Shown: one piece after another, positions 14,977 to 51,450 of the stretch
Numbering within the stretch: position 1 is the stretch's first letter
Layout: every line of letters starts with the position of its first letter
Origin: an uncultured bacterium
GTDB lineage: Bacteria > Lernaellota > Lernaellaia > JACKCT01
Length of the DNA: 64,000 bases
Reading direction: 5' to 3'
Assembly: GCA_964591275.1 (NCBI GenBank)
Contig: CAZQAE010000012.1
Location: 4,860 to 68,859 of the forward strand
Made by a program: the position numbers and the translations under genes
Notes under the pieces: model-generated
What the model saw: only the letters and a program-made list of their open reading frames with translations
Database searches by the model: none
What the model was told of the DNA's origin: nothing

Positions 14977-16674
14977 ATGGCGAAGCGAATTGGTGAAATA
15001 CTTGTTGAAAACGGCGTAATTGACGCGGAGACGCTGGACAAGGCGCTGGAAGCGCAGGAGCAAAAGGGCGGACTTCTGGGCGAGACTCTCATTCGGATGA
15101 AGGCCGTTTCCGAATTGGATTGTCTAAAAGCCCTGGCCGGGCAGTTTCATCTTCCGCTGATAGAGCAAATCGATCCGGAAAAGGTCGATGGCAGTCTTCT
15201 GGCGCGGATTCCGATCAATTACGCGAAAAAGAACCTGGTTTTGCCTCTTCATGTCGAAGACGAAAAGATCCTTGTGGCCTGCACCAATCCCCTGGCCTAT
15301 ACGGTTCTCGACGACCTGAGAGTATTTTTGGGCGGGGAGATTCAGCCCATTCTGTCCACGGTGGGCATGATCTTCGACGCGATCAACATCGCATACGACA
15401 AGGCCAAGGAAACCACTGACGAGATGCTCGACCATCTGGAGGATGAGAGCGCCGCGCCCACCTTCGACCTGGACGAGATCACCGATATCATCGACGCTAC
15501 CGACGAAGATGCGCCCATCATCCGCCTCATCAATCACCTGATGTACAAGGCGGTCAAGGATCGCGCCTCCGATATTCACATCGAGGTTTTTGAAAACGAC
15601 GTCATCGTTCGCTTTCGCATCGACGGCGTGCTTTACGAAGTTATGAAGCCGCCGAAGCGCTTCCACAATTCTATTGCCACGCGCGTGAAAATCATGGCGA
15701 AATTGAATATCGCTGAAAAACGTATCCCGCAGGACGGGCGTATCCGCATCAAAATAGCCGGCAAGGACATCGACATTCGAACCAGCATCATCCCAACGGC
15801 TTGGGGAGAGCGCGTCGTTATGCGCCTGCTGGATAAATCGCAGGTGAGCCTTGACCTGGAAGGATTGGGGCTGGGCGGTGAAAAACTTCATAAGGTTGAA
15901 GCGCTTATTCAAAATCCTTACGGCATTCTCCTGGTGACCGGTCCGACCGGTTCCGGGAAAACCACGACTCTCTATGCCTCGCTGGTTCGTCTCAACAAGC
16001 CGGATGTCAACATTCTGACCGTCGAGGACCCGATAGAATATCAGATTTCCGGCATCGGCCAGATGCAGGTTAATCCGAAGATCAAACTCACTTTCGCCTC
16101 GGGCTTGCGTTCTTTTTTGCGGCAGGATCCCGACATCATTCTCGTCGGCGAAATCCGCGATCTGGAAACTGCGGAAATCGCGATCCAGGCGTCCTTAACC
16201 GGCCATCTGGTCTTCTCGACCCTCCACACAAATGACTCGGCCAGCGCTTTTACGCGTCTGGTCGATATGGGCATGGAGCCTTTCCTGGTGTCCAGTTCGC
16301 TGATCGGCGTTATTGCGCAAAGGCTGGTGCGTGTCCTGTGCCCGCAGTGCAAAGCGGTCTATTCGCCGACCGAAGAAGAGTTGGCAAAAATCGATCTTAA
16401 GCCGGAGGATGTCAAAACTCCCATTTACAAGTCCGTCGGCTGCTCAAACTGCATGGACACCGGATATTCGGATCGAACCGCTATCTACGAAATCCTCACG
16501 ATGGATGAGGACATCCAGCAACTGATTCTTTCCAACGCAGACGCCAACGCTATCAAACGAAAAGCTATCGACAACGGTATGACGACCTTGCGGATGGATG
16601 GAGCAGACAAGGTGCTGCGCGGCGAAACAAGCATCCAGGAAATTCTGCGTGTCACATCGGCGGATGTGCAATGA
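14977..16674 (+). CDS. gspE: type II secretion ATPase GspE
   Basis: Walker A LVTGPTGSGKTTTL, Asp/His boxes and the C-terminal CxxC...CxxC zinc motif (CPQCK...CSNCMDTG); start ATG at 14977 preceded by TAAGGA. Confidence 0.9.
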   Translation: MAKRIGEILVENGVIDAETLDKALEAQEQKGGLLGETLIRMKAVSELDCLKALAGQFHLPLIEQIDPEKVDGSLLARIPINYAKKNLVLPLHVEDEKILVACTNPLAYTVLDDLRVFLGGEIQPILSTVGMIFDAINIAYDKAKETTDEMLDHLEDESAAPTFDLDEITDIIDATDEDAPIIRLINHLMYKAVKDRASDIHIEVFENDVIVRFRIDGVLYEVMKPPKRFHNSIATRVKIMAKLNIAEKRIPQDGRIRIKIAGKDIDIRTSIIPTAWGERVVMRLLDKSQVSLDLEGLGLGGEKLHKVEALIQNPYGILLVTGPTGSGKTTTLYASLVRLNKPDVNILTVEDPIEYQISGIGQMQVNPKIKLTFASGLRSFLRQDPDIILVGEIRDLETAEIAIQASLTGHLVFSTLHTNDSASAFTRLVDMGMEPFLVSSSLIGVIAQRLVRVLCPQCKAVYSPTEEELAKIDLKPEDVKTPIYKSVGCSNCMDTGYSDRTAIYEILTMDEDIQQLILSNADANAIKRKAIDNGMTTLRMDGADKVLRGETSIQEILRVTSADVQ

Positions 16675-16715
16675 GCAGTGAACAATGAGCAATGAACAAT
16701 TAGCAATGAACAGTG
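16669..16715. repeat. 14 bp tandem repeat (CAATGAGCAATGAA x about 3.3) starting at the gspE stop codon
   Basis: caatgagcagtgaa caatgagcaatgaa caattagcaatgaa cagtg. Confidence 0.7.
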
Positions 16716-16797
16716 TAGGAGCGACATTCTTGTCGCGATCCCGGCGTAGGGGGCAGGTCCCCCGTGCCTGCCCGTGTAGGAGCGATATAACTCGCGG
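16713..16797. repeat. palindromic dispersed repeat family 1, copy B (two left-arm copies flanking a G5-N5-C5 hairpin)
   Basis: gtgtaggagcgacattcttgtcgcga ... gggggcaggtccccc ... gtgtaggagcgatataactcgcg; lies in the gspE-gspF intergenic region. Confidence 0.5.
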
Positions 16798-20796: not shown

Positions 20797-21891
20797 ATGT
20801 TTAAGGCCATCGGAAATTTTGCGACGGCCAATACTCCGCGGCGAGGAGTGGCCCTTCTAATCGTGCTGATGGTCACCACCATTCTCACGGTCGTCGTGCT
20901 GGATTTCGCGCAATCCACGCGTGTCAATTTCTACATCGCCTCCAACATTCATAACGGCATGAAAGCCTATTATATGGCGAAAAGCGGCATCCAGGTCGCC
21001 GAGGGTTCGCTGCTCAGGGATATGCAAAAGACCAAAGACGACCACTTGGACGAGGACTGGAACAATCCGCTTTTCAGCTTCATCCCCTTGTCGGATACCG
21101 AAACGATCTCCGTCAACATTACCGATGAGTCCGGCAAGTTCAACGTCAATCGCATGGTGAGCGGCACGGGAAATGTCAAGCAAACGGAAGTCGACATTTT
21201 CAGAAAACTGCTGGAACTGCTGGAACTCGACCCGGCGACAGCGGATGCCGTGGCCGATTGGTTGGATATCAACGAGGACGCCTTCAACGGCGCCGGCACG
21301 GAGGATCAGTTTTACGGCTATTCGGTTTCGCCGGGAGGAGCTTATCAGTCTAAAAACGGCCGATTGTCCAGCCTGGCGGAATTGAAACTCATCAAGGGGA
21401 TCAATAGCGACGTTTTCAAAAAACTCTCTGAAGTCTGCACGATATATACGGACGCCAAGCTGAACATCAATACGATCAATGACACGGTTTTAAGCGCCAT
21501 CATTTTGTCCATTGACGAAAAAGCCGACGCGCAAAAAACCATTTCGGCTATCACGGCCTATCGCGATACGCCCGAGCAGCACTTTGAAAAAAGGTCTTTG
21601 CGCGGACAGTTGATGGAGGCCGGCGTCGATCCGCGAATGGCCGCGCGCCTGCGTCGAAAGCTCGGCACATCCAGCAGATATTTTAGCGTTGATGTTACAG
21701 CCAACGTCGGGCCGACGGTGAAATCGGTTCGCGGCGTCGTGAAAAGAAGCAAGAAAAAGGTCAGCCTGGTTTACTTCAGACCCGGAGAACTTTTAAATCC
21801 GCCCAAGGCGCCCGATGACCTGGGGGCGATGGCCGATATGTTGGGCGCCGCGCAGGGCGCCGGCATCAACATTGGCGATTTCATGCAGTGA
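20797..21891 (+). CDS. gspK: minor pseudopilin GspK
   Basis: N-terminal TM segment (RGVALLIVLMVTTILTVVVLDFA) with a GspK-like body; position immediately after gspJ. Confidence 0.75.
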   Translation: MFKAIGNFATANTPRRGVALLIVLMVTTILTVVVLDFAQSTRVNFYIASNIHNGMKAYYMAKSGIQVAEGSLLRDMQKTKDDHLDEDWNNPLFSFIPLSDTETISVNITDESGKFNVNRMVSGTGNVKQTEVDIFRKLLELLELDPATADAVADWLDINEDAFNGAGTEDQFYGYSVSPGGAYQSKNGRLSSLAELKLIKGINSDVFKKLSEVCTIYTDAKLNINTINDTVLSAIILSIDEKADAQKTISAITAYRDTPEQHFEKRSLRGQLMEAGVDPRMAARLRRKLGTSSRYFSVDVTANVGPTVKSVRGVVKRSKKKVSLVYFRPGELLNPPKAPDDLGAMADMLGAAQGAGINIGDFMQ

Positions 21892-23783
21892 CGCACATAC
21901 CGCGAAAAACCATCGCCTACCTGATCGTCGCCGCTCTTGCGCCCGCATGGCTGGCTGTCTATTCGCTCATCCAGTTGGACGAAAAGCTCACCTGGCAGTG
22001 GATGATCGACGCGGCGGCATTTTGCGCGTTGTATATGACTGTTTTTGTCATGGCCCCGAAAAAGAAGTGGCTTCGTATTACTTTCGCGCTGATTGTGGCT
22101 GGCTGGTTCGTGTTTTTCCACGTGGGAAATGTCGCGTATTACAAGTTCTACGATACCTGGGCGCACATCCATATTTTCGACCAATGGAAAGATTCCTTCG
22201 CTCTGGGGAAATCGGTTTCTGAACTTCTTGGCCTGTGGGATTGGCTTTTCGGCGTTCTCGCCCCTCTTTTGATAGCCATCGCATCTTCGCTGATCAACGT
22301 CGATCCAAAAAGAAAAATACTGGCGCCCGTTTTCCTGATCAGTGCTTTCGCCCTGGTTATTGTTCATTACATAAGCGTCGGATCGCCTGTCGGCACGAAA
22401 CACCAGGAACCGATGATGTATTTTATCAGGGCGCCGATTGATGCGCGCGTTGACGCTTACAGGAAAAGGAAAGGAATCGAGCGCGTCGCCGCCAACCTGG
22501 ACCGCTACTACCCCATCGACCACGCAATTTATCAGCGAAGTCAAAATGCCAACCCGCCATTCGCCTCGGAGCCGGTTTCCGGCACGCAGGCTCCAAAAGA
22601 CTCCGTCAACATCGTCATCATCATGATGGAGTCGGTTGTCGCCTCGGCATCCGGGGCCTGGGGCGCAAGTCCTTCCTATACGCCGAATTTGGACGCATTG
22701 GCCGCGAACGGACTCATGGCGAAAAACTTTTACGCCAACGGGAGCCAGACCGTGCGCGGGGAACTGGCGAGTCTGTGTTCCTATTATCCGAACCTGTCCG
22801 GCGGACCAATTTATTCAAGGTATCATAAAACAGAGATGATCTGTCTGCCGGAAATCCTTGGCTCCTTTGGCTATCAGACCATGTGGATATCGTCTTATAA
22901 AAAAACCTATAACAAAAAAAGCCGCTTTCTTCGCCGACATGGCGTCGATGAAATTTACGACATCAAGGACATGCCGCCCGGCTATCAAAAAATCGGATGG
23001 GGCCCTGCCGATGAGAATCTGTTCGAGTCAGCGGCGACGCGCCTGGATGCGGCAACTGAGCCTTTTTTCGCCGAGATCATGACCCTCTCGAACCATCATC
23101 CTTTCCATTGGGATTATCCCAGCAACGCAACCGCGCCGCGCGGCGGGCATTCAGAGCCGTATGAAAACTTCATGCGCGGGATTTTTTATACGGACTACGC
23201 AATAGGCAAATTCTTTGAAAGCGTGCGTGATAGTGAGTGGTTTGCCCGAACCATTTTCGTGATCGTAGGCGACCACGGCATATGGCTCTTCCCGGAGGAT
23301 TCCGCAAAAGGTCCCGTCGAAAAACAGGAAGCCTATTTTCGCGTCCCGATGGTTATCTATGCGCCGGATTTGCTCGAAGCGCAGGTTTTTGAGCAGGTTG
23401 CATCGCAAGTGGATATTGCTCCGACGGTCATGGATATTATCGGTGCCAGGGCGCCAAACACATTTGTCGGGCAAAGCCTTCTTGCGCCTTCCGGCACCCC
23501 TCCTTTCGCCGTCATGCTGCATGACAGGCAATGGAACATCAGGCGCGGCAACGAGTATTGTTATGATGTCGGCGAGCAATGTTTTTACGAACACATTCCG
23601 CGCTGTCCGAAGGGATACAAAAAGGACCTGGGCCAGCCCGTTTCGTGTTTTCATTTTGAAGATGATTTATTGAGCCATTCCGAAAAGTGGCGGCAAAAGC
23701 CGCTAATAAAAAAGAATTTAGGGCTTATGTCTTTTGCCGAGGATTTGACAGCCTATCATCACAGGCTGTTGCTACGGAAGTAG
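21888..23783 (+). CDS. LTA-synthase/phosphoglycerol-transferase (sulfatase-superfamily) membrane protein
   Basis: Five N-terminal TM helices, then an alkaline-phosphatase-superfamily domain (IMMESVVAS...GSQTVRGE, SNHHPF, VGDHG). No CxPxR sulfatase motif, so LtaS/MdoB/EptA-like. The GTG start overlaps the gspK stop as GTGA. Confidence 0.7.
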   Translation: MTHIPRKTIAYLIVAALAPAWLAVYSLIQLDEKLTWQWMIDAAAFCALYMTVFVMAPKKKWLRITFALIVAGWFVFFHVGNVAYYKFYDTWAHIHIFDQWKDSFALGKSVSELLGLWDWLFGVLAPLLIAIASSLINVDPKRKILAPVFLISAFALVIVHYISVGSPVGTKHQEPMMYFIRAPIDARVDAYRKRKGIERVAANLDRYYPIDHAIYQRSQNANPPFASEPVSGTQAPKDSVNIVIIMMESVVASASGAWGASPSYTPNLDALAANGLMAKNFYANGSQTVRGELASLCSYYPNLSGGPIYSRYHKTEMICLPEILGSFGYQTMWISSYKKTYNKKSRFLRRHGVDEIYDIKDMPPGYQKIGWGPADENLFESAATRLDAATEPFFAEIMTLSNHHPFHWDYPSNATAPRGGHSEPYENFMRGIFYTDYAIGKFFESVRDSEWFARTIFVIVGDHGIWLFPEDSAKGPVEKQEAYFRVPMVIYAPDLLEAQVFEQVASQVDIAPTVMDIIGARAPNTFVGQSLLAPSGTPPFAVMLHDRQWNIRRGNEYCYDVGEQCFYEHIPRCPKGYKKDLGQPVSCFHFEDDLLSHSEKWRQKPLIKKNLGLMSFAEDLTAYHHRLLLRK

Positions 23784-23788
23784 GAGGC

Positions 23789-23813
23789 ATGAAGTGTGAA
23801 GTATGAGGTCTGA
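23789..23813 (+). repeat. 3'-end motif family 2, copy 1 (ATGAAGTGTGAAGTATGAGGTCTGA), sense to the upstream gene
   Basis: Lies 5 nt after the TAG stop of the sulfatase-family gene; heptamer-like units ATGAAGT/GTGAAGT/ATGAGGT. Confidence 0.6.
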
Positions 23814-23914
23814 ATTTTTGGAGGCGCTATCTGTTCGTCCGCTCAATGAGATAGCGAATGAAAACAAGCAAGTTGCTCCAATTGTTGTTTTACGACGCTT
23901 TTTCGCATCATCAT

Positions 23915-23939
23915 TCACACCTCATACTTCATACTTCAT
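23915..23939 (-). repeat. 3'-end motif family 2, copy 2 (ATGAAGTATGAAGTATGAGGTGTGA on the minus strand)
   Basis: Overlaps the last three codons and the stop of the minus-strand lipoprotein gene; inverted relative to copy 1, which lies about 100 bp away. Confidence 0.6.
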
Positions 23940-25131
23940 CCGCCGTATCATCATCCACATCATCGTCCATGGTGTCGTCGTCTGCGGTATCGTCATCTCC
24001 GCCTTCGGGAAACTGCGTACCCGTTCGCCATGAGGAAACGCCATAGAGTGCGGCATCTTCAAGCTCAAAGTCACTGTCGTAGCAGGTTGGGTTCAGCGTC
24101 CAGCCGCCCGTGTCGCGAAGCATGAACGTGGATTGTTCCTTCTTTCCGTCGTAACCGACGGCCCAGCCGATGTTGGGATCGATGAAATCAAAGTCGTGGA
24201 TCATCCAATCGGCGCTTTTTTCTCCGGGGAGGGAAACGGGCGACCATAGAGCATTTTCATAGAGGTACATGACGGAATACGAGCAGTCGCCCAGGACGAA
24301 ATTCCGGTCCCCGATTTTTGTTGTTCGTTTAATATTTTCCGCCGGGCAGCCGGAGGCGGGGAATTCGAAAGGAGTAAAAGCGGATTCTTCATTTTGATAC
24401 CAAAGAAAACCGGTTCTATTCAAACCATCGATTTTCGAACCACCGACCATAATGCGACTGGAATAGCTCAGGCCCAGGGAAGAAAAATCGAGGAAATTGG
24501 CCGGATCGTAATCATAGAGATGCACCGGGCCGTCTTGGCCGCCTTGAATAAAATAGAGGAATGCGCGTTTTCCACTTTCCTGCAACAGGGCCATTACGCC
24601 GTTGTCGGCCAGCAGCATGATGTCCTTGATCACGATGTTGCCGTTGAACATGTCGTCCAGGTCCGTCAGATCCCACGCGCCGTCGGGCGTGCGACGCAAA
24701 AGAACGCCTCCCGATTCGGCGAGGACGTTCGCCATGGCCCAGGCGCCCTTGTCCGGGGTGGCGATGATGCGGCGGATTTCGTTGCCGGAGTGCATGATTC
24801 CCGGGTCTTCTTCGCTCCACTCGCCGTTTTCGTAAAGATAGGCCTTATCCGTTCCGGAGGCCCAGCCGAAATCGGCTGTCAGAAAATCCACGGCGAACCA
24901 GGGAAGTTCATCTTCGGGCGCCGTCTCGTCTTTGGCCCAAAGCCCCCCGGAATAACGGTAAACGGCTTCGCCGACGGCAATGGCTTCAATGTCCTTGATG
25001 CAGGTGACGGGAGTGGCATTGTCCTCAGCCTCTTTTTTTTCTTCGCCATCCTTTGCGGTGCAGGCGTTCAGCATCAGGCCGAAAATCAAAATCACGACAA
25101 TAGGCAATACGTTGAAATATGTATTTCTCAT
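23929..25131 (-). CDS. secreted lipoprotein with beta-propeller-like body and C-terminal poly-Asp tail
   Basis: Signal peptide + lipobox (LMLNAC); C-terminus GGDDDTADDDTMDDDVDDDTADEV. Confidence 0.5.
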   Translation of the reverse strand: MRNTYFNVLPIVVILIFGLMLNACTAKDGEEKKEAEDNATPVTCIKDIEAIAVGEAVYRYSGGLWAKDETAPEDELPWFAVDFLTADFGWASGTDKAYLYENGEWSEEDPGIMHSGNEIRRIIATPDKGAWAMANVLAESGGVLLRRTPDGAWDLTDLDDMFNGNIVIKDIMLLADNGVMALLQESGKRAFLYFIQGGQDGPVHLYDYDPANFLDFSSLGLSYSSRIMVGGSKIDGLNRTGFLWYQNEESAFTPFEFPASGCPAENIKRTTKIGDRNFVLGDCSYSVMYLYENALWSPVSLPGEKSADWMIHDFDFIDPNIGWAVGYDGKKEQSTFMLRDTGGWTLNPTCYDSDFELEDAALYGVSSWRTGTQFPEGGDDDTADDDTMDDDVDDDTADEV

Positions 25132-25737
25132 TATCCATTCCCCCGATGGTTCGGTTTGGGGATTATAAGTCGTCCCATGCTTCGCTATTGTCGCTTAAAA
25201 TTTGTAAATTTGAAAGATATGCGGAGCGTAATAAAATTCCGCGGTTGATTTGTCGCAAGGTTTAATGCCTTCAACCTCTCCCTTGATAGGCTGCCTATCC
25301 GTATCGCCATTCCGTCAGGAACGAAGTTTTTAGTGGAGGAATCCCTCAAATCATTTCGATGACGCCCGGACAAAGTGATTCCTTTGTCAGTCAGGTCAAG
25401 TGCCTCATCGCTTCGTTTCCGGGGCCTTGTCGCTTCACTCGAGTCTCGCAATGGGCAGCGGGAATCCTCGAAGGTTCCTCATAAAAACGCTCCACCGAAA
25501 ATTCCTTGATTTTAAGTGCCGACATGTTACGCTTCTCCATGGCGCAACCTACTGTTTTGGGATTCAATATGGCGGCGGCTACAACCGCCGGTAAAACTCT
25601 ATTAGGGGGCGCGCCATCTATACTTATTCTAACGGACTCCATTTCGCTTCGCTTCGGTTGGAACGACAATAATTGTGTCATTTTTAAATTTTTAAATACG
25701 GGAAATTGGAAATCCTGTTTTCAAAGGAGAAAACGAA

Positions 25738-26190
25738 ATGATCGATGAAAATCTCGCCTTCGCTATTCCCATGCTGGAACAAGGCGTGGACATCCTGCAA
25801 AAGATGGGCATGAAGGTGGTCGGCCTGGAGAAAAACAAAGCCAGAATCAAGATGCCCTTTGAGCCGAATCGCAATCACATCGGCAGCGCCTACGGGGGAT
25901 CGCTTTTTTGTCTGGCCGAGTTTTCCGGGGGCGTAATCTTCGCAGCCTCATTCGACTTCGCAAAGTATTTTCCCCTCGTCAAAGAATTTTCTATTCGTTA
26001 TCGCCGTCCGGCAACCACGGATATGTATCTCGATGTCGCGCTATCGCCCGAGGAGGTTGAGCGCATTAGCCGGGAGGCGGATGAAAAGGGCAAGGCCGAT
26101 TATTCTCTGGACCTCGAACTCAAAGACGAAAGTGGGCAGGTCTGCTGCATCGCGCGTGGGACATGGCAGCTAAGGAAGATTCCGACCTAA
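25738..26190 (+). CDS. hotdog-fold thioesterase-like protein (PaaI/YiiD-C family)
   Basis: 150 aa; GSAYGGSLFCLAEFSGGV is typical of the 4HBT/YiiD C-terminal hotdog domain. Confidence 0.5.
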   Translation: MIDENLAFAIPMLEQGVDILQKMGMKVVGLEKNKARIKMPFEPNRNHIGSAYGGSLFCLAEFSGGVIFAASFDFAKYFPLVKEFSIRYRRPATTDMYLDVALSPEEVERISREADEKGKADYSLDLELKDESGQVCCIARGTWQLRKIPT

Positions 26191-26221
26191 GGGACGCGAT
26201 TTCAACGATGCGGGAATTTTT

Positions 26222-26611
26222 ATGAAACCACTTCGGATTTTATTCGCTGATATTGGCGATGATCATGCGGGACGTGAGTCAAAGAACCTGGCCAAAATCC
26301 TGCGCGACGCCGGCTTTGAGGTGATTCCGCTCGGATTCGGGTTTAGCGCAGGCGAGATTGCTTTGGCCGCACGCCAGGAGGATGTGGATGGTCTTTGCCT
26401 GTGGCGAGGGGGCGATATCGAAAAACTGAAAAGTTATTTGAATCAAAGCGATGTCGAGCTTCTCGAATCCATACCGGTTTTTCTGTGCGGAATGAGTGCG
26501 CAAGACCTCACGCCGGTGAAATGGCATGGATCAGTCCCTATCATCTTCAAGAAAGATGAATCGCTATCGACAATCGCCGAACGAATAAGCCATGAATTAA
26601 AAAAACGATAG
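26222..26611 (+). CDS. small cobalamin-binding-domain-like (Rossmann) protein
   Basis: ILFADIGDDHAGRESKNLAKILRDAGFEVIPLG resembles a B12-binding domain, but the DxHxxG register is off by one, so this is a tentative call. Confidence 0.35.
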   Translation: MKPLRILFADIGDDHAGRESKNLAKILRDAGFEVIPLGFGFSAGEIALAARQEDVDGLCLWRGGDIEKLKSYLNQSDVELLESIPVFLCGMSAQDLTPVKWHGSVPIIFKKDESLSTIAERISHELKKR

Positions 26612-26630
26612 CTTCCAAGCTTTTCCGTCC

Positions 26631-28022
26631 TCACCCTTTTTCTTTGCCTTGCCAAATCAACATTGACTTCGCTTCAGGGGTATAGTCGCCGTCGCCTTGG
26701 TGCACGATCAGCGGCGGCAGATGCGTGGTTTTACTCCGCGATCCCACAATCCCGCTTACGAGTAGACACTTGGCTTCGACCTTTTCCTTGGGCAGGACGC
26801 GGCGAATTTTACAGGCGCCGATTTTAGCTTCGCGCAGCAGGGTCGTTAACTCCTCTTGCCTGGACGCCAAGTGGATCAGATAAATCTTTCCGCCTTCGCG
26901 CACAAGATATTTCATTCCGCCAATTAACTCGCCAAGCGTCAGTCCCACCTCGTGACGGCTGGCGGCTCGCGTTTCATCGGGACTGATATGCCCTGTCCCC
27001 ACGGGGAAATATGGTGGATTGCTGACGGCGATATCGAAGCTTCCCTTTGCGAAAACATTGCCTGCGCGGCGCACATTTTCGTAAACAATGCTGGCGCGAT
27101 CTTCGAGTGAGTTGGCCAATAATGAGCGCCTCGACATTTCCGCCAGATCCCGCTGATATTCGATTCCGGTGACATCGTGCGCGCCCTGGCCCGCGAGGAT
27201 GAGGGGGATGACGCCGCTGCCGCTGCCCAGGTCGATGATTCGGTCGCCCAGATCAAATTCTACGAAGGCCGCCAGAAGCAAAGGGTCGATGGAGTAACGG
27301 AAACCCGTGAGCTTTTGAATGATACGCAAAGGACCGTGCATGAGATCCTGCAAATTTTCATCGTGGCCGACGGTGATTTCAACCAGAGGACGCCCGAGAA
27401 CTTCTTCTATCTTTTCCGGTGGAACATCGCCTGATCTGAGTAGCAGCGGAGGATCGGTAGAAATATCAATGACCGTGCTGCCTCGCGAAGGCGCCAGCGG
27501 TCCGGCGTCGAATAATACCAAGTCCGGTTCATTGCAAAAGTAATTCGCAACATCATCGGCGCAAAACGATGCGGGCATCCGCGCGGGATTGGCGCTTGTG
27601 GCGACCAACGGAACGCCGGCCATTTCCACCAAACGCCGAGAAGTTTTTGCGCCGGGAACACGAACGCCGATCGTTGGTCCCCAGCCTGTCGCTTCGCCGA
27701 TAAAATCACTGCGAGCGCGCCCAACGAGAGTTAAAGGACCAGGCCACAGCCGTTTTGCCAATGGCTCAAAGAACGCTGGCGGCGGGTCAAAGGCGGCGCG
27801 GGCCATACGTGCATCGGCCACCAGGCAGGGCATAGCCTTTTTTGATTCGCGGCTTTTCAGTTTGTTGATGCGGGCCAGAGCCTTGGGCCTGTCCAATCGG
27901 GCAAGAAGGCCGTAGAGAGTTTCTGTCGGGAAAATAATGATCCGTCCCTGGTCGAGGAGCTGGGCCGCGTGTGTCAGGGCCTTGCCGCCGGGCGTATCGG
28001 GATCAATCTTGATTCTATCCAT
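26631..28022 (-). CDS. fusion protein: L-threonylcarbamoyladenylate synthase (TsaC/YrdC domain) + NPPY class I methyltransferase (COG4123/TrmN6-like)
   Basis: N-terminal half IIIFPTETLYGLLARLD...KSRESKKAMPCLVA = YrdC fold. C-terminal half FRYSIDPLLLAAFVEFDLGDRIIDLGSGSGVIPLILAG...FDIAVSNPPYF = SAM MTase with an NPPY motif. Confidence 0.7.
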   Translation of the reverse strand: MDRIKIDPDTPGGKALTHAAQLLDQGRIIIFPTETLYGLLARLDRPKALARINKLKSRESKKAMPCLVADARMARAAFDPPPAFFEPLAKRLWPGPLTLVGRARSDFIGEATGWGPTIGVRVPGAKTSRRLVEMAGVPLVATSANPARMPASFCADDVANYFCNEPDLVLFDAGPLAPSRGSTVIDISTDPPLLLRSGDVPPEKIEEVLGRPLVEITVGHDENLQDLMHGPLRIIQKLTGFRYSIDPLLLAAFVEFDLGDRIIDLGSGSGVIPLILAGQGAHDVTGIEYQRDLAEMSRRSLLANSLEDRASIVYENVRRAGNVFAKGSFDIAVSNPPYFPVGTGHISPDETRAASRHEVGLTLGELIGGMKYLVREGGKIYLIHLASRQEELTTLLREAKIGACKIRRVLPKEKVEAKCLLVSGIVGSRSKTTHLPPLIVHQGDGDYTPEAKSMLIWQGKEKG

Positions 28023-28091
28023 AATTTCAAGTCAGCCATCGGGTAAAAGCAGCCGCTCAAAGGTTGATGGAAAAGTCAGAGGGAAAGCGAT

Positions 28092-28598
28092 CTATTTTTC
28101 CCCCTTGATCGCCTTTTGCAGCTTCACGTTCTTTTTCCTGACGCCTTCCCGCATCGATTTTTTATGATCGTCAAGAATTTTCGCCACGGTCGGATCACCG
28201 ACGGCGAGAATCTGCGCCGCCAGCACCGCAGCGTTTACAGCGCCGAAATCTCCCACCGCCACTGTTGCAACCGGCACGCCGGGAGGCATTTGCACTGTGG
28301 CGAGCAGGGCATCGAATCCTGCCAGGGGCGTTGCTGCCATAGGGACGCCGATGACGGGCAGGGTGGTGTGCGCCGCGGCGGCGCCGGCCAGATGCGCCGC
28401 ACCACCGGCAGCGGCAATGATCACGCCGAATCCCTTCGCCTTCGCCTTTTTGACGAAATTAGCCGTCGCGTCCGCGCAGCGATGCGCGGATAAAACACTG
28501 ACTTCGTATGGCAGGCCGAATTTTTTGAGTTGATCCGCGCATTTTGACATGACAGGCCAATCGGAATCCGACCCCATGATGACCGCTACTTTTTTCAT
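28092..28598 (-). CDS. purE: N5-carboxyaminoimidazole ribonucleotide mutase PurE
   Basis: [17 protein letters not shown]...[10 protein letters not shown] signature; probable start at the internal ATG (MKKVAV). Confidence 0.85.
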
Positions 28599-28637
28599 TG
28601 TGTCTCCATTATTCGCTTGGCGTGCCATTTGGCCACA

Positions 28638-29909
28638 CTATAAGTGTTTTTTCGCTTTTGCGCCGATGTCCGTGCGGCAATGCGCTCCTTTAAAGCCGAT
28701 TTTGCCCACGGCGGCGTACGCGTTGGCAATGGCCTCAGGGATCCCTGCGCCCAGGGCCGTTACGCCCAGAACGCGCCCCCCGCTTGTGACTACGTTGTCG
28801 CCGTCGAGTTTCGTGCCCGCATGAAAAACTTCCGCGTTTGGACCGAAATCCGAATCGAGACCCGTGATGACTTTGCCTTTCTCGTAAGCGCCGGGATAAC
28901 CGCCCGATGCCATTACCACGCACACCGAAGGCTCTTGCAGCCATTCGACGCTGTGCTCGTGCAAAGTCCCATCGGCGCACGCCATGAGCAGCGGTACGAT
29001 ATCCGACTTCATGCGAAAAAGAAGCGGCTGCGTTTCGGGGTCGCCGAAGCGCGCGTTGAACTCAAGAACTTTGACCGCGCCGTTTTCGATCATGAGACCG
29101 GCGTAGAGAACGCCCTGGTAGGGGGCGCCCTGATCGGCCATCCCCGCCACGATCGGCTTCATGATGCCGGTCATGATGTCGTCGAAAAGGGCCGGCGTGA
29201 CGACAGGCGCGGGTGAGTATGCGCCCATGCCGCCCGTATTGAGCCCTTTGTCGCCGTCGAACACGCGTTTGTGATCCTGGCACGTCGCCAGGGGCATGAC
29301 GGTTTTGCCGTCGCTAAAAGCCAGGAAGCTGGCTTCCTCGCCATGTAGAAATTCTTCCACGAGGACACTATCGCCCGCGTCGCCGAAATCGCGATCCAGC
29401 ATGATGCTTTTTAGGCCCGCTTTCGCCTCGTCGAGATTTTCACAAATGAGAACGCCTTTGCCCGCGGCCAGTCCATCGGCTTTCAGAACGACCGGAAAGC
29501 CGAAACGGTTCAGTGAGGCCAAAGCTTTTTCGTATTCCGTGAAACTTTCGGATTGGCCGGTGGGGACTCCGTATTTTTGGCAAATCTGCTTCGTGAACGA
29601 CTTGCTGCCTTCAAGCTGCGCAGCCGCTTTTTTTGGTCCGAAAGCCTTAAGGCCTCGCTCAAAAAGCAGATCGGCCAACCCGTTCACCAAGGGTCCCTCG
29701 GGACCGATGACGGTCAGATCAATCGAATTATCCCGGGCAAAATCGGCCAGCGCCATGATGTCGCCCGCGCCTATGTCGATGTTTTCAGCGACCTGGGCCG
29801 TTCCCGCGTTGCCCGGCGCGCAGAATATCTTTTCGACCAGCGGGGATCGGGCGATTTTCCAACACAGCGTATGTTCACGACCGCCGGAACCGACGACGAG
29901 TATTTTCAT
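28638..29909 (-). CDS. purD: phosphoribosylamine--glycine ligase PurD
   Basis: MKILVVGSGGREHTLCWKIARSP and an ATP-grasp body; start at the internal ATG. Confidence 0.9.
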   Translation of the reverse strand: MKILVVGSGGREHTLCWKIARSPLVEKIFCAPGNAGTAQVAENIDIGAGDIMALADFARDNSIDLTVIGPEGPLVNGLADLLFERGLKAFGPKKAAAQLEGSKSFTKQICQKYGVPTGQSESFTEYEKALASLNRFGFPVVLKADGLAAGKGVLICENLDEAKAGLKSIMLDRDFGDAGDSVLVEEFLHGEEASFLAFSDGKTVMPLATCQDHKRVFDGDKGLNTGGMGAYSPAPVVTPALFDDIMTGIMKPIVAGMADQGAPYQGVLYAGLMIENGAVKVLEFNARFGDPETQPLLFRMKSDIVPLLMACADGTLHEHSVEWLQEPSVCVVMASGGYPGAYEKGKVITGLDSDFGPNAEVFHAGTKLDGDNVVTSGGRVLGVTALGAGIPEAIANAYAAVGKIGFKGAHCRTDIGAKAKKHL

Positions 29910-29944
29910 TTTGGACCTCGGAAAAGATGTGCGTTGCGTATCAT

Positions 29945-30922
29945 TCAATACGGTGATTCGATGTGGTTTTCTCTAAAGAATTCTTTAAGCTTTTTCAAGA
30001 CTCTGGTTTCTATTTGCCGAACGCGCTCGCGCGTAATGCCGTATCTATCGCCGATATCCTGCAGGGTTTGCGGCGGATCGCCGAGCATCCTGTTTTGATA
30101 AATATCCAGTTCCTTGCCTGATAACGTGTCTTTGAAATTGAGCATCGCCTTGCGGTATATCGCATCGAGTTGTTCGCCGACCAGGGCCTCATCCTGTAGA
30201 ACTTCGGTCGAAGGCGTCATGTCGCCCATCGTTGTCGTGGAATCCGCTGTCAAGGGCGATTCAAGACTCAACTCATTGCGCGACAGGCGTTTGTCCATCT
30301 CAATGACATCTTTTTCGCTGACCTCAAGCCGCTCGGCCAACAATTTCGTCGTAGGCGAGAAACCTTGCGCTTCGAGCCGCTCCTTTTCCTTCTTCAGATT
30401 GAAAAAGAGCTTGCGTTGTGCCTGGGTTGTGCCGATTTTGACCATCCGCCAGTTGTTGAGAATGTACCGATAAATATATGCCTTGATCCACCACGCGGCG
30501 TAACTGGAAAGTTTGACGCCCTTGAAGGGGTCGAATTTTGAGACCGCTATCATCAATCCGATGTTCCCCTCCTGAATCAGGTCCATCAGGTTGATAAAAG
30601 CCCTCTGGTAATCCATGGCGATTTTGACGACCAGCCGCAGATTGCTGGTGATGAGTTTCGCCGCCGCATCCTGGTCATTGTTTTCGTGAAGTTTAACGGC
30701 GAGGTCATATTCCTCATCTCTGGTCAACAGAGAATAGCGACCGACGCCTGACAAATAGGCTGAGAGGCTGCTGACGTGGACAAGGGATTCGCTGGATTTG
30801 GAATCCGAAGGATCATCGAAAAGTTTCCCGCTTGATTTTGCCGTACCAGATGGACTCTCGTCTTCTTTGTCGAGGACTTCAGGATCAATCGCATCATCTT
30901 TTTTTCTCTGTTTTCTCACCAT
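29945..30922 (-). CDS. rpoH: RNA polymerase sigma-32 (heat-shock) factor RpoH with extended acidic/Ser-rich N-terminus
   Basis: RpoH box QRKLFFNLKKEKERL; regions 2-4 of sigma-70 (DLIQEGNIGLM, the C-terminal HTH TLQDIGDRYGITRERVRQIE); about 40 extra N-terminal residues. Confidence 0.8.
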   Translation of the reverse strand: MVRKQRKKDDAIDPEVLDKEDESPSGTAKSSGKLFDDPSDSKSSESLVHVSSLSAYLSGVGRYSLLTRDEEYDLAVKLHENNDQDAAAKLITSNLRLVVKIAMDYQRAFINLMDLIQEGNIGLMIAVSKFDPFKGVKLSSYAAWWIKAYIYRYILNNWRMVKIGTTQAQRKLFFNLKKEKERLEAQGFSPTTKLLAERLEVSEKDVIEMDKRLSRNELSLESPLTADSTTTMGDMTPSTEVLQDEALVGEQLDAIYRKAMLNFKDTLSGKELDIYQNRMLGDPPQTLQDIGDRYGITRERVRQIETRVLKKLKEFFRENHIESPY

Positions 30923-31078
30923 GTCCTCTTAAACCATGAAAAGCTTTTTGAATCAAATCCTTTTGATGTTTATGGGAATAATTGAGCATTTTTCATTTGA
31001 AAAGGAAAATTCGGTTCTTATTACCTAAAATTTCGTTGTATAATGGCTTGTTGGGGCCATGAACGGAGTTAATTTATA

Positions 31079-32482
31079 ATGCTGAAGCACTGTAGTAAAG
31101 TTTTGGTTTTCCTGGTGATTTTCTCTTTCCTGTCATGCGTTGGCCCGGATTCCGACGACGATGACGCGGCTGACGATGACACACAAGCAGATGACGATGA
31201 CGCGGACGACGATTCCGACGACGACGTTGATGATGACGTTAATGATGACGCGGACGACGACGTTAATGACGACGTTAATGATGACGCGGACGACGATGCG
31301 GACGACGACGTTAATGACGACGTGGACGATGACATTGACGATGATGCTGACGACGACATTGTCCTTCCACATCCTCCAGGGCGTTACGTTGCATTTGTCA
31401 CCGACGCCACGGAAAACGCCATCGAAACTCTTATGAATTTTCGGACGCAGCAGGGCTACAGTGTTGAAATCGTCAATGTTGATGACCTGATGGCGCAAAC
31501 GCCCGGCGCTCCCGTCGAGGAATTGGCCAGGGATTATTTGATGGATACCTACGAGACTTCCCGCGAAGTTTCTAAACCCTACTGCCTGATCGTCGCCGGT
31601 TACAACACAATGCCGATGCCGGTCCTGGATACGGATCCGATGAATCCGAATACTTACTCAACGGCCACCGATGCCTATTACGCGGATATCGATGTCGATT
31701 GGGATTTCGACGGCGACGGCGTGATCGGCGAGTGGGACGAGGACGTCTTCTCTCTCGATGCCGAATATTTGATTGGCCGCATTCCCAGCGACGATCCCGA
31801 ATTGGTGGGCGATTATTGCGACAAGGTTGTTGATTTTGAATCGGACGGTGAATCGGCCTATAAGTGGGAAACCTTGCTTCTGGCTGGCTATATCGCCATC
31901 GACGGCGATTCGGCGATCATTTTGAATATGATCCGCAACAACACTCTCATGCCAGGCGGTTATGGCGTGCATCGCATGTACGAAGAAGGCGGCCCGTTTC
32001 CAGGCGAGGAAATTCTAAACACAGACAATCTTCTGGAGCAATGGGGAAACAATCCTTACGGACTGGTGATATGGGCCAGTCACGGATCGACGCATGGGGC
32101 ATTTTTTATCGACAGCGACGATGCGCCGTTATTCGGCGCGGGCGAAACTTCCATGGTAATGTCTTCGGCATGCAACCAAAGCAATCCGGACGCTGATGAC
32201 AACATCGGCGCTTCGATGGTTTTGCATGGACCGGGAGCAGCTTTCGTCGGTTCATCGGAGATCACGCATCCCGGAGAGTTGGGAGAAGGCTCCCTGATTT
32301 TCATGGTCATGACGGACTACTACATGAACCTAAACGACACGCTGGGCCACGCCCTGTATCATTCCATGGATGTCTATATCGAGAACTTTTTTATGCTGCC
32401 CTATGATCGCGGATTGTTCCTGCGCAATTATTACGGCTTCCACATCCTCGGCGATCCAGCGCAGACCTATTGGCCGAGATGA
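31079..32482 (+). CDS. secreted gingipain-like (C25 family) cysteine peptidase with N-terminal poly-Asp linker
   Basis: Lipoprotein signal (FLSC) then DSDDDDAADDD...(DDDV/DDDA)n; the catalytic-dyad context SHGSTHGAF ... MVMSSACNQS resembles the C25 GHGSETAW ... FDVACVNG. Confidence 0.5.
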   Translation: MLKHCSKVLVFLVIFSFLSCVGPDSDDDDAADDDTQADDDDADDDSDDDVDDDVNDDADDDVNDDVNDDADDDADDDVNDDVDDDIDDDADDDIVLPHPPGRYVAFVTDATENAIETLMNFRTQQGYSVEIVNVDDLMAQTPGAPVEELARDYLMDTYETSREVSKPYCLIVAGYNTMPMPVLDTDPMNPNTYSTATDAYYADIDVDWDFDGDGVIGEWDEDVFSLDAEYLIGRIPSDDPELVGDYCDKVVDFESDGESAYKWETLLLAGYIAIDGDSAIILNMIRNNTLMPGGYGVHRMYEEGGPFPGEEILNTDNLLEQWGNNPYGLVIWASHGSTHGAFFIDSDDAPLFGAGETSMVMSSACNQSNPDADDNIGASMVLHGPGAAFVGSSEITHPGELGEGSLIFMVMTDYYMNLNDTLGHALYHSMDVYIENFFMLPYDRGLFLRNYYGFHILGDPAQTYWPR

Positions 32483-32543
32483 GGACGGCTGACTCAAATG
32501 CGGAATGGCGAATGCGGAAAGAACACAATATTCCTCAATAAAG

Positions 32544-32574
32544 TCATACCTCATACTTCAAACTTCATAACTCA
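32544..32574 (-). repeat. 3'-end motif family 2, copy 3 (ATGAAGTTTGAAGTATGAGGTATGA on the minus strand)
   Basis: Starts 5 nt after the TGA stop of the minus-strand FGE-fold gene, sense to that gene. Confidence 0.6.
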
Positions 32575-33450
32575 TTGCGCGGCGCGGACGCAGCGAAATC
32601 CGACAAGGTCAATGGCCACGTTATCCTGTATCCAGAACCGGTCCGAGGCCCGCATGAAGGATGCGATGCCCGAGACGGCGCCGCCGCGAAGGATATGCCC
32701 TGTACCCTCGGAAGGTCCTGAAGGATCCTGTCCGGGGCTTTGCGCGTAGTACTGCGCGTCGTAGGAGTCGTTGACCCACTCGCGGATATTTCCGAGCATG
32801 TCGTAGAGGCCGAAATCGTTTGGCTCCTTTTGACCCACTGGCTGGGGTGTGTTTTGCGAATTGTCCTTATACCATGCGATGTCATTGAGGCAGTCATTGT
32901 CGTCGCCGCAATAGTATTTCGTTGTTGAATTCGCCCTGGCTGCGTATTCCCATTCCGCTTCCGTGGGAAGGCGACCGTCCATCGCCTGGCAAAATAGTTT
33001 GGCGTATAGCCAAACGACGTTTTCCACCGGACAATCCGAGCATTCGCCATACTGACTGGGATTTTCACCCATCACTTCAAAGAACTGACTCTGCGTGATT
33101 TCCGACGCCGTCATTTCCATAGGGGATATTGTTACAGTGTGAACCGGGCTTTCGTCTTCCGCGCAGATCGTGTCGCCGGCGGAACACCCCATCTCGAAAG
33201 CGCCGCCCGCTATTGGCATCCACTGAAGCTCCGTCGTGCCGTATCCGAAATCGTCGTCATCATCATCATCGTCGTCATCTCCATCGTCTTCCTCATCGTC
33301 ATCGTCGCCGGAGCAGGCCGACATCAAAAACAATGAACACGCAACGATCAAAGTTGCGGCCAGGGTGAATTTTTTAAAAAGGCGGATCATGGCATACCTC
33401 GCGAAAGTGTTATTGGCCGGATGCTCCGGCGAAAAATAAGGGCAATCCAT
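32572..33450 (-). CDS. FGE-sulfatase-fold (SUMF1-like) lipoprotein with poly-Asp linker, lacking catalytic Cys
   Basis: Signal + lipobox (LMSACSGDDDDEEDDGDDDDDDDDDDF); GRLPTEAEWEYAARA and a C-terminal GFRCVR; no Cys in the region homologous to the FGE active site. Confidence 0.6.
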   Translation of the reverse strand: MDCPYFSPEHPANNTFARYAMIRLFKKFTLAATLIVACSLFLMSACSGDDDDEEDDGDDDDDDDDDDFGYGTTELQWMPIAGGAFEMGCSAGDTICAEDESPVHTVTISPMEMTASEITQSQFFEVMGENPSQYGECSDCPVENVVWLYAKLFCQAMDGRLPTEAEWEYAARANSTTKYYCGDDNDCLNDIAWYKDNSQNTPQPVGQKEPNDFGLYDMLGNIREWVNDSYDAQYYAQSPGQDPSGPSEGTGHILRGGAVSGIASFMRASDRFWIQDNVAIDLVGFRCVRAAQ

Positions 33451-33677: not shown

Positions 33678-34886
33678 ATGTTTTGTTTTCGATATGGTCT
33701 ATATTTTCTAATTGTGGCTCTTTCTGTTTTCGTCGGCCTTGCGTCGGTCGCCTGCACGAGTGCTTCCGGCGGCGACGATGATGACGATGATGGCCAAGAC
33801 CCCCAAGATGACGACGCTGACGATGACGGAGATGATTGCATCAACTGTTCGGGCACAGCCGAATGCACAGAGGCTCTGGGAGCAGGGTGGGTCTGCATCA
33901 ATGATTGCTGCGTCGATTATGGCGCGGACGACGATTTGAACGACGATGTCGATGATGACGCCGACGACGATGTCGATGACGATGTCGACGACGACGTGGA
34001 TGACGATGTCGATGATGATGTCGATGATGACGCCGATGACGATATCACAGAAGGCTTCGTGGAAATCCAATCCGGTGGGTTTTCTATGGGCAGCCCCTGG
34101 GATGAGGGAGGAAGGGACAGCGATGAAGATGATTATGATGTCACGCTGACGCGGTCCTTTGAAATCATGGCCAAGGAAGTTGCACAGGTTCGTTTTGAGG
34201 ATCTTATGGGATTCAATCCGAGCACCTTTGGCGATTGCGGTGATTTCTGCCCGATCGAAACAGTGAGTTGGTACGACGCGCTGGCCTACGCCAACAAACT
34301 GTCCGCGGAATACGGCAAGCTGTCGTGCTATATCCTTTCCGATATCCGATGTTTTAACGGCTTTTACGACACGGCGCCTTTCTATTGTCGGGATCACGGA
34401 GGCATTTACGAAGCGACAGTCGCCCTCAATAGCGTTGATTCCGTGTATGAGTGCGCGGGCTATCGCCTTCCCACGGAAGCTGAGTGGGAATACGCGGCCA
34501 GAGCCGGTTCAGAAACGGCGTTTTACAGCGGCGACATCACCCGGTTTTTTTGCACGCCCATGGACCCTGTTTTAAGCGAAATCGGGTGGTATTGTGGCAA
34601 TGCGGACGAGCCGAATCCCATCGGCGGGAAAATCCCCAACGACTGGTGGATCTATGATGCCAGCGGCAATGTATACGAATGGGTTTGGGATTTGTACGAC
34701 ACGTACCCCGCCGACCATGAGACAGACCCGGAAGTGTCGGAAGGTGCGTTTCTCGAAAATCGCGCTAGTCGCGGCGGCAGTTGGCGGCAGACGTCTTCAA
34801 AATGTCGTAGCGCCAATCGTGCTTCTCGCGCTCCCAATGAAAGAGCTGACGATCTCGGTTTCAGGCTGGTTAGGACCCTGGATTGA
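33678..34886 (+). CDS. FGE-sulfatase-fold (SUMF1-like) lipoprotein with poly-Asp tracts and Cys-rich module
   Basis: Lipobox VACTSASGGDDDDDDG...; GYRLPTEAEWEYAARAGS; C-terminal GGSW...LGFRLVR; only one of the two FGE catalytic cysteines is present (SSKC). Confidence 0.65.
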   Translation: MFCFRYGLYFLIVALSVFVGLASVACTSASGGDDDDDDGQDPQDDDADDDGDDCINCSGTAECTEALGAGWVCINDCCVDYGADDDLNDDVDDDADDDVDDDVDDDVDDDVDDDVDDDADDDITEGFVEIQSGGFSMGSPWDEGGRDSDEDDYDVTLTRSFEIMAKEVAQVRFEDLMGFNPSTFGDCGDFCPIETVSWYDALAYANKLSAEYGKLSCYILSDIRCFNGFYDTAPFYCRDHGGIYEATVALNSVDSVYECAGYRLPTEAEWEYAARAGSETAFYSGDITRFFCTPMDPVLSEIGWYCGNADEPNPIGGKIPNDWWIYDASGNVYEWVWDLYDTYPADHETDPEVSEGAFLENRASRGGSWRQTSSKCRSANRASRAPNERADDLGFRLVRTLD

Positions 34887-48113: not shown

Positions 48114-48188
48114 GAATGTAGGAGCGACATTCCTGTCGCGACCTTGGCTGCGATGTCGATCAGTCACGACAAGAATGTCGTTCCTACA
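48114..48188. repeat. palindromic dispersed repeat family 1, copy C (complete hairpin, 26 bp arms)
   Basis: gaatgtaggagcgacattcctgtcgcgacc ... gtcacgacaagaatgtcgttcctaca; lies between the convergent ceramidase-like and panD genes. Confidence 0.6.
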
Positions 48189-51377: not shown

Positions 51378-51450
51378 AGGCGGGTAGCTCAGTTGGTAGA
51401 GCAACGGCCTTACACGCCGTGGGTCGCAGGTTCGAGCCCTGTTCCGCCTA
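51378..51450 (+). tRNA. tRNA-Val (anticodon TAC)
   Basis: Cloverleaf read by hand: acceptor AGGCGGG/TCCGCCT, D arm GCTC-AGTTGGTA-GAGC, anticodon arm ACGGC-CTTACAC-GCCGT, T arm GCAGG-TTCGAGC-CCTGT; the 5' A-T first pair is unusual. Confidence 0.75.

Follow-up and report, generated by a model that had tools for sequence, protein, structure and literature searches.

The window analysed here (a stretch of 64,000 nucleotides, positions 4,860 to 68,859 of contig CAZQAE010000012.1, from an uncultured bacterium of the Lernaellota; coordinates below are those of the window) contains three copies of a 25-nt motif, each placed at the stop codon of a gene and in the sense orientation of that gene. We find that this motif is formed by the heptanucleotide TGARGTN, repeated in tandem in a short array of 3.5 to 6 units, and that arrays of this unit recur at the 3' ends of genes in many phyla. 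The reading we prefer, with a probability of about 0.5, is that TGARGTN is a heptanucleotide simple-sequence repeat (SSR), of the class of the short tandemly repeated repetitive (STRR) sequences and long SSRs, and that gene 3' ends are the only places where it is tolerated and, perhaps, seeded. The repeat structure, distribution, polarity, anchoring and lineage-specific presence of the arrays are established by direct observation.

Three exact copies of ATGAAGTnTGAAGTATGAGGTnTGA are present in the 64-kb window, with none expected by chance. A search for ATGAAGTNTGAAGTATGAGGTNTGA with up to 3 mismatches recognizes exactly three sites (23789-23813 on the plus strand, 23915-23939 and 32544-32568 on the minus strand), and dinucleotide shuffles (n = 100) give an expectation of 0 such matches. 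The preliminary description of this DNA, which had reported three sense-strand copies at stop codons, is thereby confirmed, each copy being in the sense orientation of the gene that precedes it; variation among the copies is confined to the two N positions, and 23 of the 25 positions, rather than the 22 originally counted, are identical. The arrays and the spacer between the first two are the following:

23776-23817, plus strand: heptamer array 1, CGGAAGT AGGAGGC, then ATGAAGT GTGAAGT ATGAGGT CTGAATT; the exact 25-nt motif is at 23789-23813.
23814-23914, no strand assigned: spacer of 101 nt between the facing arrays 1 and 2, with small internal hairpins.
23915-23939, minus strand: heptamer array 2, ATGAAGT ATGAAGT ATGAGGT GTGA; its second TGA (23929-23931) is the stop of the lipoprotein open reading frame (ORF).
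32544-32574, minus strand: heptamer array 3, TGAGTTA TGAAGTT TGAAGTA TGAGGTA TGA.

Array 1 belongs to a polytopic, LtaS-like sulfatase of 631 aa (PF00884, ORF 21888-23783), whose TAG stop (23781-23783) falls within the degenerate 5' units of the array; the 25-nt match starts 5 nt past this stop, at 23789, as had been stated. Array 2 belongs to a lipoprotein of 400 aa (ORF 23929-25131), and also here the earlier account holds: the stop lies inside the copy, the protein ends ...DEV*, and these last residues, D-E-V, are encoded by the array. Only for array 3, at the end of an FGE-sulfatase protein of 292 aa (ORF 32572-33450), does the distance have to be corrected, from 5 to 3 nt between the 25-nt match and the TGA at 32572-32574, a stop which is itself supplied, in register, by the first and degenerate unit of the array (TGAGTTA). 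In three further assemblies of this organism the array region recurs with 100% identity, and it is thus not an assembly artefact. The sequence of the 101-nt spacer is unique, being seen only in contigs of this organism, with no repeat in the window or in the loci fetched for comparison.

The motif had been presented as a discrete conserved element built of heptamers. The heptameric construction is correct: the 25-mer consists of 3.5 head-to-tail units of NTGARGT, that is TGA(A/G)GTN, Tandem Repeats Finder reports a period-7 array at all three sites of the window, matches to TGARGTNTGARGT overlap at 7-nt steps, and a lag-7 scan agrees. The discrete 25-nt element, instead, has to be given up for a short array from a family of variable length (3 to more than 30 units). 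With a period that cannot be divided by 3, an NTGARGT array contains TGA in all three sense frames, while its reverse strand is open in all three. The AGGAGG that had been pointed out before copy 1 is indeed present, but in the 7-nt register it appears as a degenerate unit (CGGAAGT AGGAGGC), and reads as part of the repeat rather than as a ribosome-binding site. In the logo of the collected units, which is partly imposed by the search pattern and is no proof of selection on the hexamer, conservation is 82-95% at five positions of the hexamer, the fourth position holds A or G in 97% of units, and the 7th base is free (C in 23%). TGAAGT accounts for half of all units, and GGAGGT, CGAGGT and AGAGGT are the most frequent variants. 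With the same reservation as for the logo, the 7th base varies by lineage, being T in Chitinophagales, A in Prevotellaceae, and C or G in Acidobacteriota and Planctomycetota.

Beyond the window, a scan of 185,579 species genomes (596 Gb) with TGAAGTNTGAAGTNTGAGGT yielded at least 120 stretches, whereas 18 fixed bases would give about 17 by chance in a database of this size. Among the matches listed, on which the counts for the genome set rest, carriers span at least 8 phyla and include cultured isolates (among the cultured carriers are Flavihumibacter petaseus NBRC 106054, Pedobacter suwonensis, Terrimonas pollutisoli and Chryseosolibacter histidini); they belong to the Bacteroidota (Chitinophagaceae, Prevotellaceae, Pedobacter, Saprospiraceae), Acidobacteriota, Planctomycetota, Chloroflexota, Cyanobacteria, Verrucomicrobiota, Fibrobacter and a few others. 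Nearly every one of these matches sits in a longer array, of 3 to 35 units, mostly with one constant 7th base. The full 25-mer is found in 72 metagenome stretches, several of which share with the window the sample series, the G+C content and a repetitive extragenic palindrome (REP); three contigs of this series (L130, L170, L192) carry additional copies of the TGARGT array together with the REP of the window. With three loci in 64 kb and more on the contigs of the same series, the copies are dispersed and mostly intergenic, as is the case for heptanucleotide SSRs. Viral contigs contribute only 4 stretches, and phages are not notable carriers. Arrays of other heptamers, which fall outside the ascertainment by TGARGT, are abundant in the fetched loci of the carrier genomes (about 1 per 10 kb); a stop triplet is present in 77% of their units, as compared with 47% of random heptamers, and TGA in 48%, as compared with 24%.

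The polarity and anchoring of the arrays were evaluated by approximating genes with long ORFs: we counted the arrays for which a sense ORF of at least 100 codons stops between -15 and +25 nt from the 5' edge, and, as the mirror case, those for which an antisense ORF stops at the 3' edge. In the genome set (132 arrays) there are 64 sense stops at the 5' edge versus 7 antisense stops at the 3' edge (p = 4e-14), while only 5.7% of random positions have an ORF stop at the edge; in the metagenome set (62 arrays) the corresponding numbers are 27 and 3 (p = 8e-6). When the arrays with at least 700 nt of flanking sequence are pooled (n = 137), 71 overlap a sense stop or begin no more than about 18 nt from it, and 11 abut the end of an antisense ORF; sense stops peak sharply at the array edge, whereas antisense stops are spread over 50-400 nt with no peak at the edge. 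An anchored array typically begins at the stop of its gene or up to about 15 nt past it. The bias persists among arrays that do not overlap a stop (32 sense versus 10 antisense, p = 9e-4). A TGA of the array serves as the stop codon in 31 of the 64 anchored cases of the genome set, at offset 0, 7, 14 or 21. The earliest possible start of the next gene is usually 30-300 nt or more past the array, and thus the anchor is the upstream stop rather than the downstream start. Overall about 90% of the arrays are in sense, with the purine-rich strand being the sense strand of the upstream gene. Intragenic copies occur in our data set only in antisense: short arrays, 12 of the 137 (L015, L019, L034, L069, L088, L091, L105, L117, L118 and others) lie deep within long antisense ORFs, where they would encode TSNFKLQ or PQTSNFK heptapeptide repeats. 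The rule of stop codon and orientation proposed from the three window copies was said to fall if the motif proved to be scattered without orientation or association with stops; in about 200 public arrays the 64 versus 7 and 27 versus 3 distributions are the opposite of such a scatter. TGARGTN is not an unoriented dispersed repeat, and its positional rule holds far beyond the window.

For the history of the window arrays we could rely on a single usable relative (L122); a search of 5.8 billion proteins gave 3 homologues. In this relative the lipoprotein is 67% identical and the order of type II secretion system (T2SS), sulfatase and lipoprotein genes is the same, but the convergent stops of sulfatase and lipoprotein are only 6 nt apart, with no array between them; no TGARGT array was found in the 21 kb of L122. 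Relative to L122, 145 nt at the junction of copies 1 and 2 are an insertion. Likewise, the gap between gspE and gspF is 3 nt in L122 and 139 nt in the window, where it harbors a heptamer array of a different unit, followed by a REP of which further copies are present:

16664-16712, plus strand: second type of heptamer array, CAATGAR x6 (caatgag cagtgaa caatgag caatgaa caattag caatgaa).
16715-16738, 16776-16797 (partial) and 48118-48141, strand not given: GTAG-REP, GTAGGAGCGACATTCyTGTCGCGA, with a GTAG head and the imperfect palindrome GCGACA...TGTCGC.

The CAATGAR array, which has stops in three frames, overlaps the TGA stop of the ORF for the GspE ATPase (16672-16674) and lies within the gspE-gspF junction. 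Since arrays are missing at the junctions of L122, those of the window, with the sequence around them, are lineage-specific insertions, placed exactly between or after stop codons. As for the GTAG-REP, in L130, L170 and L192 it also occurs just after heptamer arrays, and it tends to follow arrays in 3' intergenic DNA.

On a shorter time scale, a single locus recovered from three samples (L148, L153, L187) has 10 units each time, with a different order of the variants AAG, AGG, AAC and AAA, which suggests a rapid turnover of units with total length kept; 11 other pairs of loci are identical between samples, and the window arrays are invariant in 4 assemblies. In a different lineage, three metagenome loci (L127, L149, L134) have TGARGTA arrays of 4 and 10 units inside 40-nt flanks that are at least 90% identical (left TTTAGAGTTTAGAGTTAT, right GAGTTGCCGCTTTGCGTCATTGCGAGGCACGAA), so that here the array is part of a larger dispersed repeat, possibly a mobile one. 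The genes that carry arrays follow no obvious theme. That the hosts encode exported proteins is true of the three window genes (the polytopic LtaS-like sulfatase and two proteins with a lipobox), but is no rule elsewhere, where hosts include PPK2, NagB/PIG-L, an HTH regulator, a transglutaminase-like protein and DUF1565 paralogues. Three DUF1565-like genes, paralogues or orthologues (L145, L162, L170), all end in ...GWDIG(A/S)DEWTP* and are followed within 10-18 nt by the same heptamer array; apparently an array can travel with the 3' end of its gene during duplication.

These properties can be interpreted in terms of a tolerated repeat. Arrays would arise and change size in 7-nt steps, by replication slippage or template switching, and would be seeded at, or survive only at, the 3' ends of genes; seeding at gene ends is conceivable because the TGARGTN unit begins with a stop codon. 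As the sense strand has TGA in every frame, an array could replace or follow a stop, but would have no place within a gene. Turned the other way, or placed on the 5' side, it would introduce into the mRNA anti-Shine-Dalgarno-like or C-rich sequence, or decoy starts and stops. Two effects on expression would probably follow. An array would act as a three-frame stop pad, ending translation within 7 codons in any frame and for any number of units; and where convergent genes have an array each, as do the sulfatase and the lipoprotein, a long REP-like stem would form in the 3' untranslated region (3'-UTR) as a by-product. Several observations weigh against this interpretation. Slippage lengthens an array without moving its edge; alone, it does not account for a 5' edge that is flush with the stop and a 3' edge that typically lies 50-130 nt away from the following gene. 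A pure filter of tolerance gives no obvious reason for the 3:1 sense bias among arrays that lie off the stop. The three window copies, at unrelated genes, have the same AAG-AAG-AGG order and the same length, invariant in four assemblies, and this shared module looks more like something copied or selected than like three independent products of slippage. Finally, because all external arrays were ascertained by the TGARGT pattern, a preference for this unit over other heptamers is not readable from them.

These difficulties leave room for another reading, in which the arrays are dedicated cis-acting RNA signals of the 3'-UTR, read by a conserved trans factor, a possibility that we entertain only tentatively. 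A role in 3'-end stability or in the binding of a protein, both among the early suggestions, is conceivable. Candidate factors are the anti-Shine-Dalgarno (anti-SD) tail of 16S rRNA, given the SD-like units (GAGGT, and the GGAGGT variants), or an RNA-binding protein with 7-nt periodicity, and S1, Csp or CsrA binding was proposed by MacGregor for the TAACTGA repeats (PMC4679880). The action of such a factor would be to capture or release ribosomes after termination, or to shield the 3' end. The strong sense polarity and flush position at stops across phyla, the conservation of the hexamer (82-95%, A/G 97%) next to a free 7th base, the prevalence of GGAGGT, CGAGGT and AGAGGT among the variants, and the recurrence of one module at three unrelated window genes are all in keeping with a signal; the search pattern, however, accounts in part for the conservation logo, copy number goes from 3 to over 30, and the array is missing at the orthologous site of the relative. 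Furthermore, half of the units are TGAAGT, which pairs poorly with the anti-SD, and the carriers include many Bacteroidota and Cyanobacteria, groups in which SD pairing is little used. Unlikely, in our opinion, is the broader proposition of a 3'-end signal conserved across phyla, in which TGARGTN arrays would serve as strand-specific insulators of gene ends and be read by core machinery; the options for such reading would be the ribosome or RF2 on the sense RNA (an all-frame stop combined with a ribosome trap similar to an SD) and/or, on the C-rich antisense RNA, Rho. Taken by itself, the notion that the functional strand is the antisense one, (ACYUCAN)n, which is C-rich, almost free of G and open in all frames, and that it is a loading site for Rho at which antisense or convergent read-through would be stopped just before entering the gene from its 3' end, is quite improbable. 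Its appeal is that it accounts both for the orientation, which puts the C-rich strand on the incoming antisense RNA, and for the position at gene boundaries; the composition of the unit fits, about 45% of the flush arrays among the matches listed face a convergent gene (by-eye tally), and suppression of antisense transcription by Rho is established in E. coli. Yet a 25-nt array is far shorter than a typical rut site, the common C at the 7th base (23%) puts G into the antisense RNA, and arrays are also found between co-directional genes.

Other readings place the function in the pair of copies 1 and 2 or in the single copy. The preliminary description had noticed that copies 1 and 2 are inverted and could form a long hairpin acting as a bidirectional terminator. 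The hairpin is sound as a prediction, a stem of 25 bp with a dG of -66 to -67 kcal/mol and a z of about -6 on both strands; the idea of a terminator is weak, since the loop is 101 nt long, there is no U-tract, and a promoter and terminator scan around copies 1 and 2 gave nothing between these two arrays and, after them, no site with the short G+C-rich stem, the loop of 3-8 nt and the U-tract of an intrinsic terminator. A further point against it is the CAATGAR array, which lies inside the gspE-gspF junction, where strong termination would be detrimental. More in general, there is little probability that the inverted pair is the functional unit, either as a bidirectional terminator or as a REP-like stabilizing hairpin. 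An inverted partner within 200 nt does occur downstream of 41 of 109 arrays and upstream of only 5, but this excess arises automatically from arrays being flush with stops, and 62% of the arrays have no partner (all among the matches listed). The loops of the other pairs range from 3 to 100 nt and are unrelated in sequence. Paired units agree in their A/G state no more often than by chance (42 of 79), with the register set by the minimal loop, an imperfect rule under which, for example, the window pair is misregistered; this absence of co-variation indicates independent arrays, each belonging to its own gene, with the stem as a by-product. Canonical terminators are rare after flush arrays (7 of 87 versus 3 and 4 in the controls of the terminator scan, a comparison that is not informative), and an Rfam scan of the whole window returned only a tRNA at 51378-51450, with no family match for the arrays. 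Array 3 has no inverted partner that we could note by eye in the 89 nt downstream, where no partner search was run; on the other side of the same convergent spacer it is faced by a three-unit mini-array, AATGCGG AATGGCG AATGCGG (32497-32517, plus strand), which starts 15 nt past the TGA of a Peptidase_C25 ORF (31079-32482) and whose unit is stop-free in all frames.

Very unlikely is also that copy 1, the 101-nt spacer and copy 2 together constitute a 151-bp mobile element, similar to a miniature inverted-repeat transposable element (MITE) or to a REPIN, with the arrays as terminal inverted repeats and copy 3 as a solo end. Inverted ends of 25 bp and the overall size would be typical of such an element, the whole 145 nt are inserted relative to L122, and the L127, L149 and L134 arrays do sit in a larger dispersed repeat with conserved flanks. 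Against it, the inner 101 nt are unique in the window and in the fetched loci, there is no target-site duplication (the flanks are GGAGGC and CCGCCG), the loops of other pairs differ in length and sequence, and most arrays are solo and variable in length. Almost no weight can be given to the motif being a translated mini-ORF, M-K-(C/Y/F)-E-V, with the role of a translational coupling or termination peptide, as had been suggested. An in-frame ATG...TGA is present in all three copies, and copy 1 has AGGAGG before it, but only 1 nt separates this from the ATG, and it is lacking in copies 2 and 3, so there is no consistent SD spacing. The only variable base changes the amino acid (C, Y or F), and conservation is thus higher for the nucleotides than for the peptide; in most loci the majority spacer base is T, C or G and there is no ATG, and array length varies in 7-nt steps. 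We have therefore discarded a translated small ORF as a candidate.

The interpretation of TGARGTN as a tolerated repeat places it among the known heptanucleotide SSRs, where it belongs with the cyanobacterial STRR sequences, the long SSRs of Mrazek, TAACTGA of Beggiatoaceae and GGGAATC of Xanthomonas. The cyanobacterial STRR, reportedly described by Mazel in 1990, and the long SSRs resemble it in the 7-nt unit, intergenic location, a copy number that varies (in TGARGTN from locus to locus), dominance of a few units in each genome and presumed origin by slippage; their units are different, and TGARGTN spans many non-cyanobacterial phyla. To our knowledge no positional or strand rule relative to stop codons has been described for STRR. 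Heptamers are the commonest class of long SSR, according to what is said of Mrazek 2007 in the summary given in PMC4679880. The closest in behavior to TGARGTN are the GGGAATC and GGGGA(C/T)T repeats of Xanthomonas and Nostoc (Rehm et al. 2015, PMC4692102), which are likewise dispersed intergenic tandem heptamers close to stops, some of them in inverted pairs, with hosts of all functional classes. In contrast to TGARGTN, the GGGAATC unit is unrelated and stop-free, the G-quadruplex proposed for it is implausible for TGAAGT units, its G-rich strand shows about equal use of the coding and the non-coding side (PMC4692102) as against some 90% sense for TGARGTN, and its repeats are largely conserved between sister species (PMC4692102), whereas the TGARGTN array is missing at the locus of the relative. 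The TAACTGA repeats of marine Beggiatoaceae, Cyanobacteria and some Bacteroidetes (MacGregor 2015, PMC4679880) have forward stops in all three frames and are thus confined to the ends of ORFs. Like TGARGTN they have an open reverse strand; they are intergenic, with 2-43 copies, a patchy cross-phylum spread and admixture of other heptamers, and some overlap the stop of the upstream gene. They lie, however, mainly a few nt upstream of starts and were proposed as sites for a translational regulator (PMC4679880), while TGARGTN is anchored on the upstream stop; with a different unit and a position far from the next start, TGARGTN is not part of the TAACTGA network.

Also REP and REPIN elements (GTAG-tagged extragenic palindromes) are extragenic, prefer gene 3' ends and convergent genes, form hairpins as inverted doublets and are thought to stabilize mRNA 3' ends (PMC3733652). 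A REP, however, is an imperfect palindrome with a GTAG or CGTC head, mobilized by RAYT (PMC3733652), whereas the heptamer arrays have neither internal dyad symmetry nor a GTAG head. A literature search with the repeat sequence TGAAGTTTGAAGT and similar ones returned only primers and unrelated results, and a keyword search of the literature found no paper describing the TGARGTN unit; a 2025 survey of short tandem repeats contains no treatment of heptamers (PMC12699852). The kind of repeat is already known, and what stands out in TGARGTN is how widely it is distributed and how strong its polarity is.

Some other features of the window deserve mention. Asp-rich low-complexity stretches, encoded by tandem repeats of 12-48 nt (GACGAT/GACGAC), are present in several of its lipoprotein-like genes at 31192-31361, 33250-33307, 33912-34043 and 23947-23990; they come directly after the lipobox cysteine in the C25 peptidase and in two FGE-sulfatase proteins, and are C-terminal in the 400-aa lipoprotein. 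A single ORF of 463 aa (26631-28022, minus strand) joins a Sua5/YciO/YrdC domain (PF01300) to a small methyltransferase domain (PF05175, MTS).

The record of dispersed heptanucleotide repeats in bacteria goes back to the STRR of 1990. If the TGARGTN arrays are merely tolerated repeats, they represent a modest addition to this catalogue. Even so, many proteins owe to them their stop codon and their final 1-3 residues (e.g. ...DEV*), they break assemblies, and annotators should be able to recognize them. Their positional rule is unusually clean, is replicated in two independent collections and many phyla, and leads to questions that can be tested, namely whether the arrays are seeded at stops by template switching or are selected as gene-end signals. 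Should they prove to be insulators, with a rule of position common to GGGAATC and other heptamers, the puzzle of STRR and related heptamers would have a single answer at the ends of genes.

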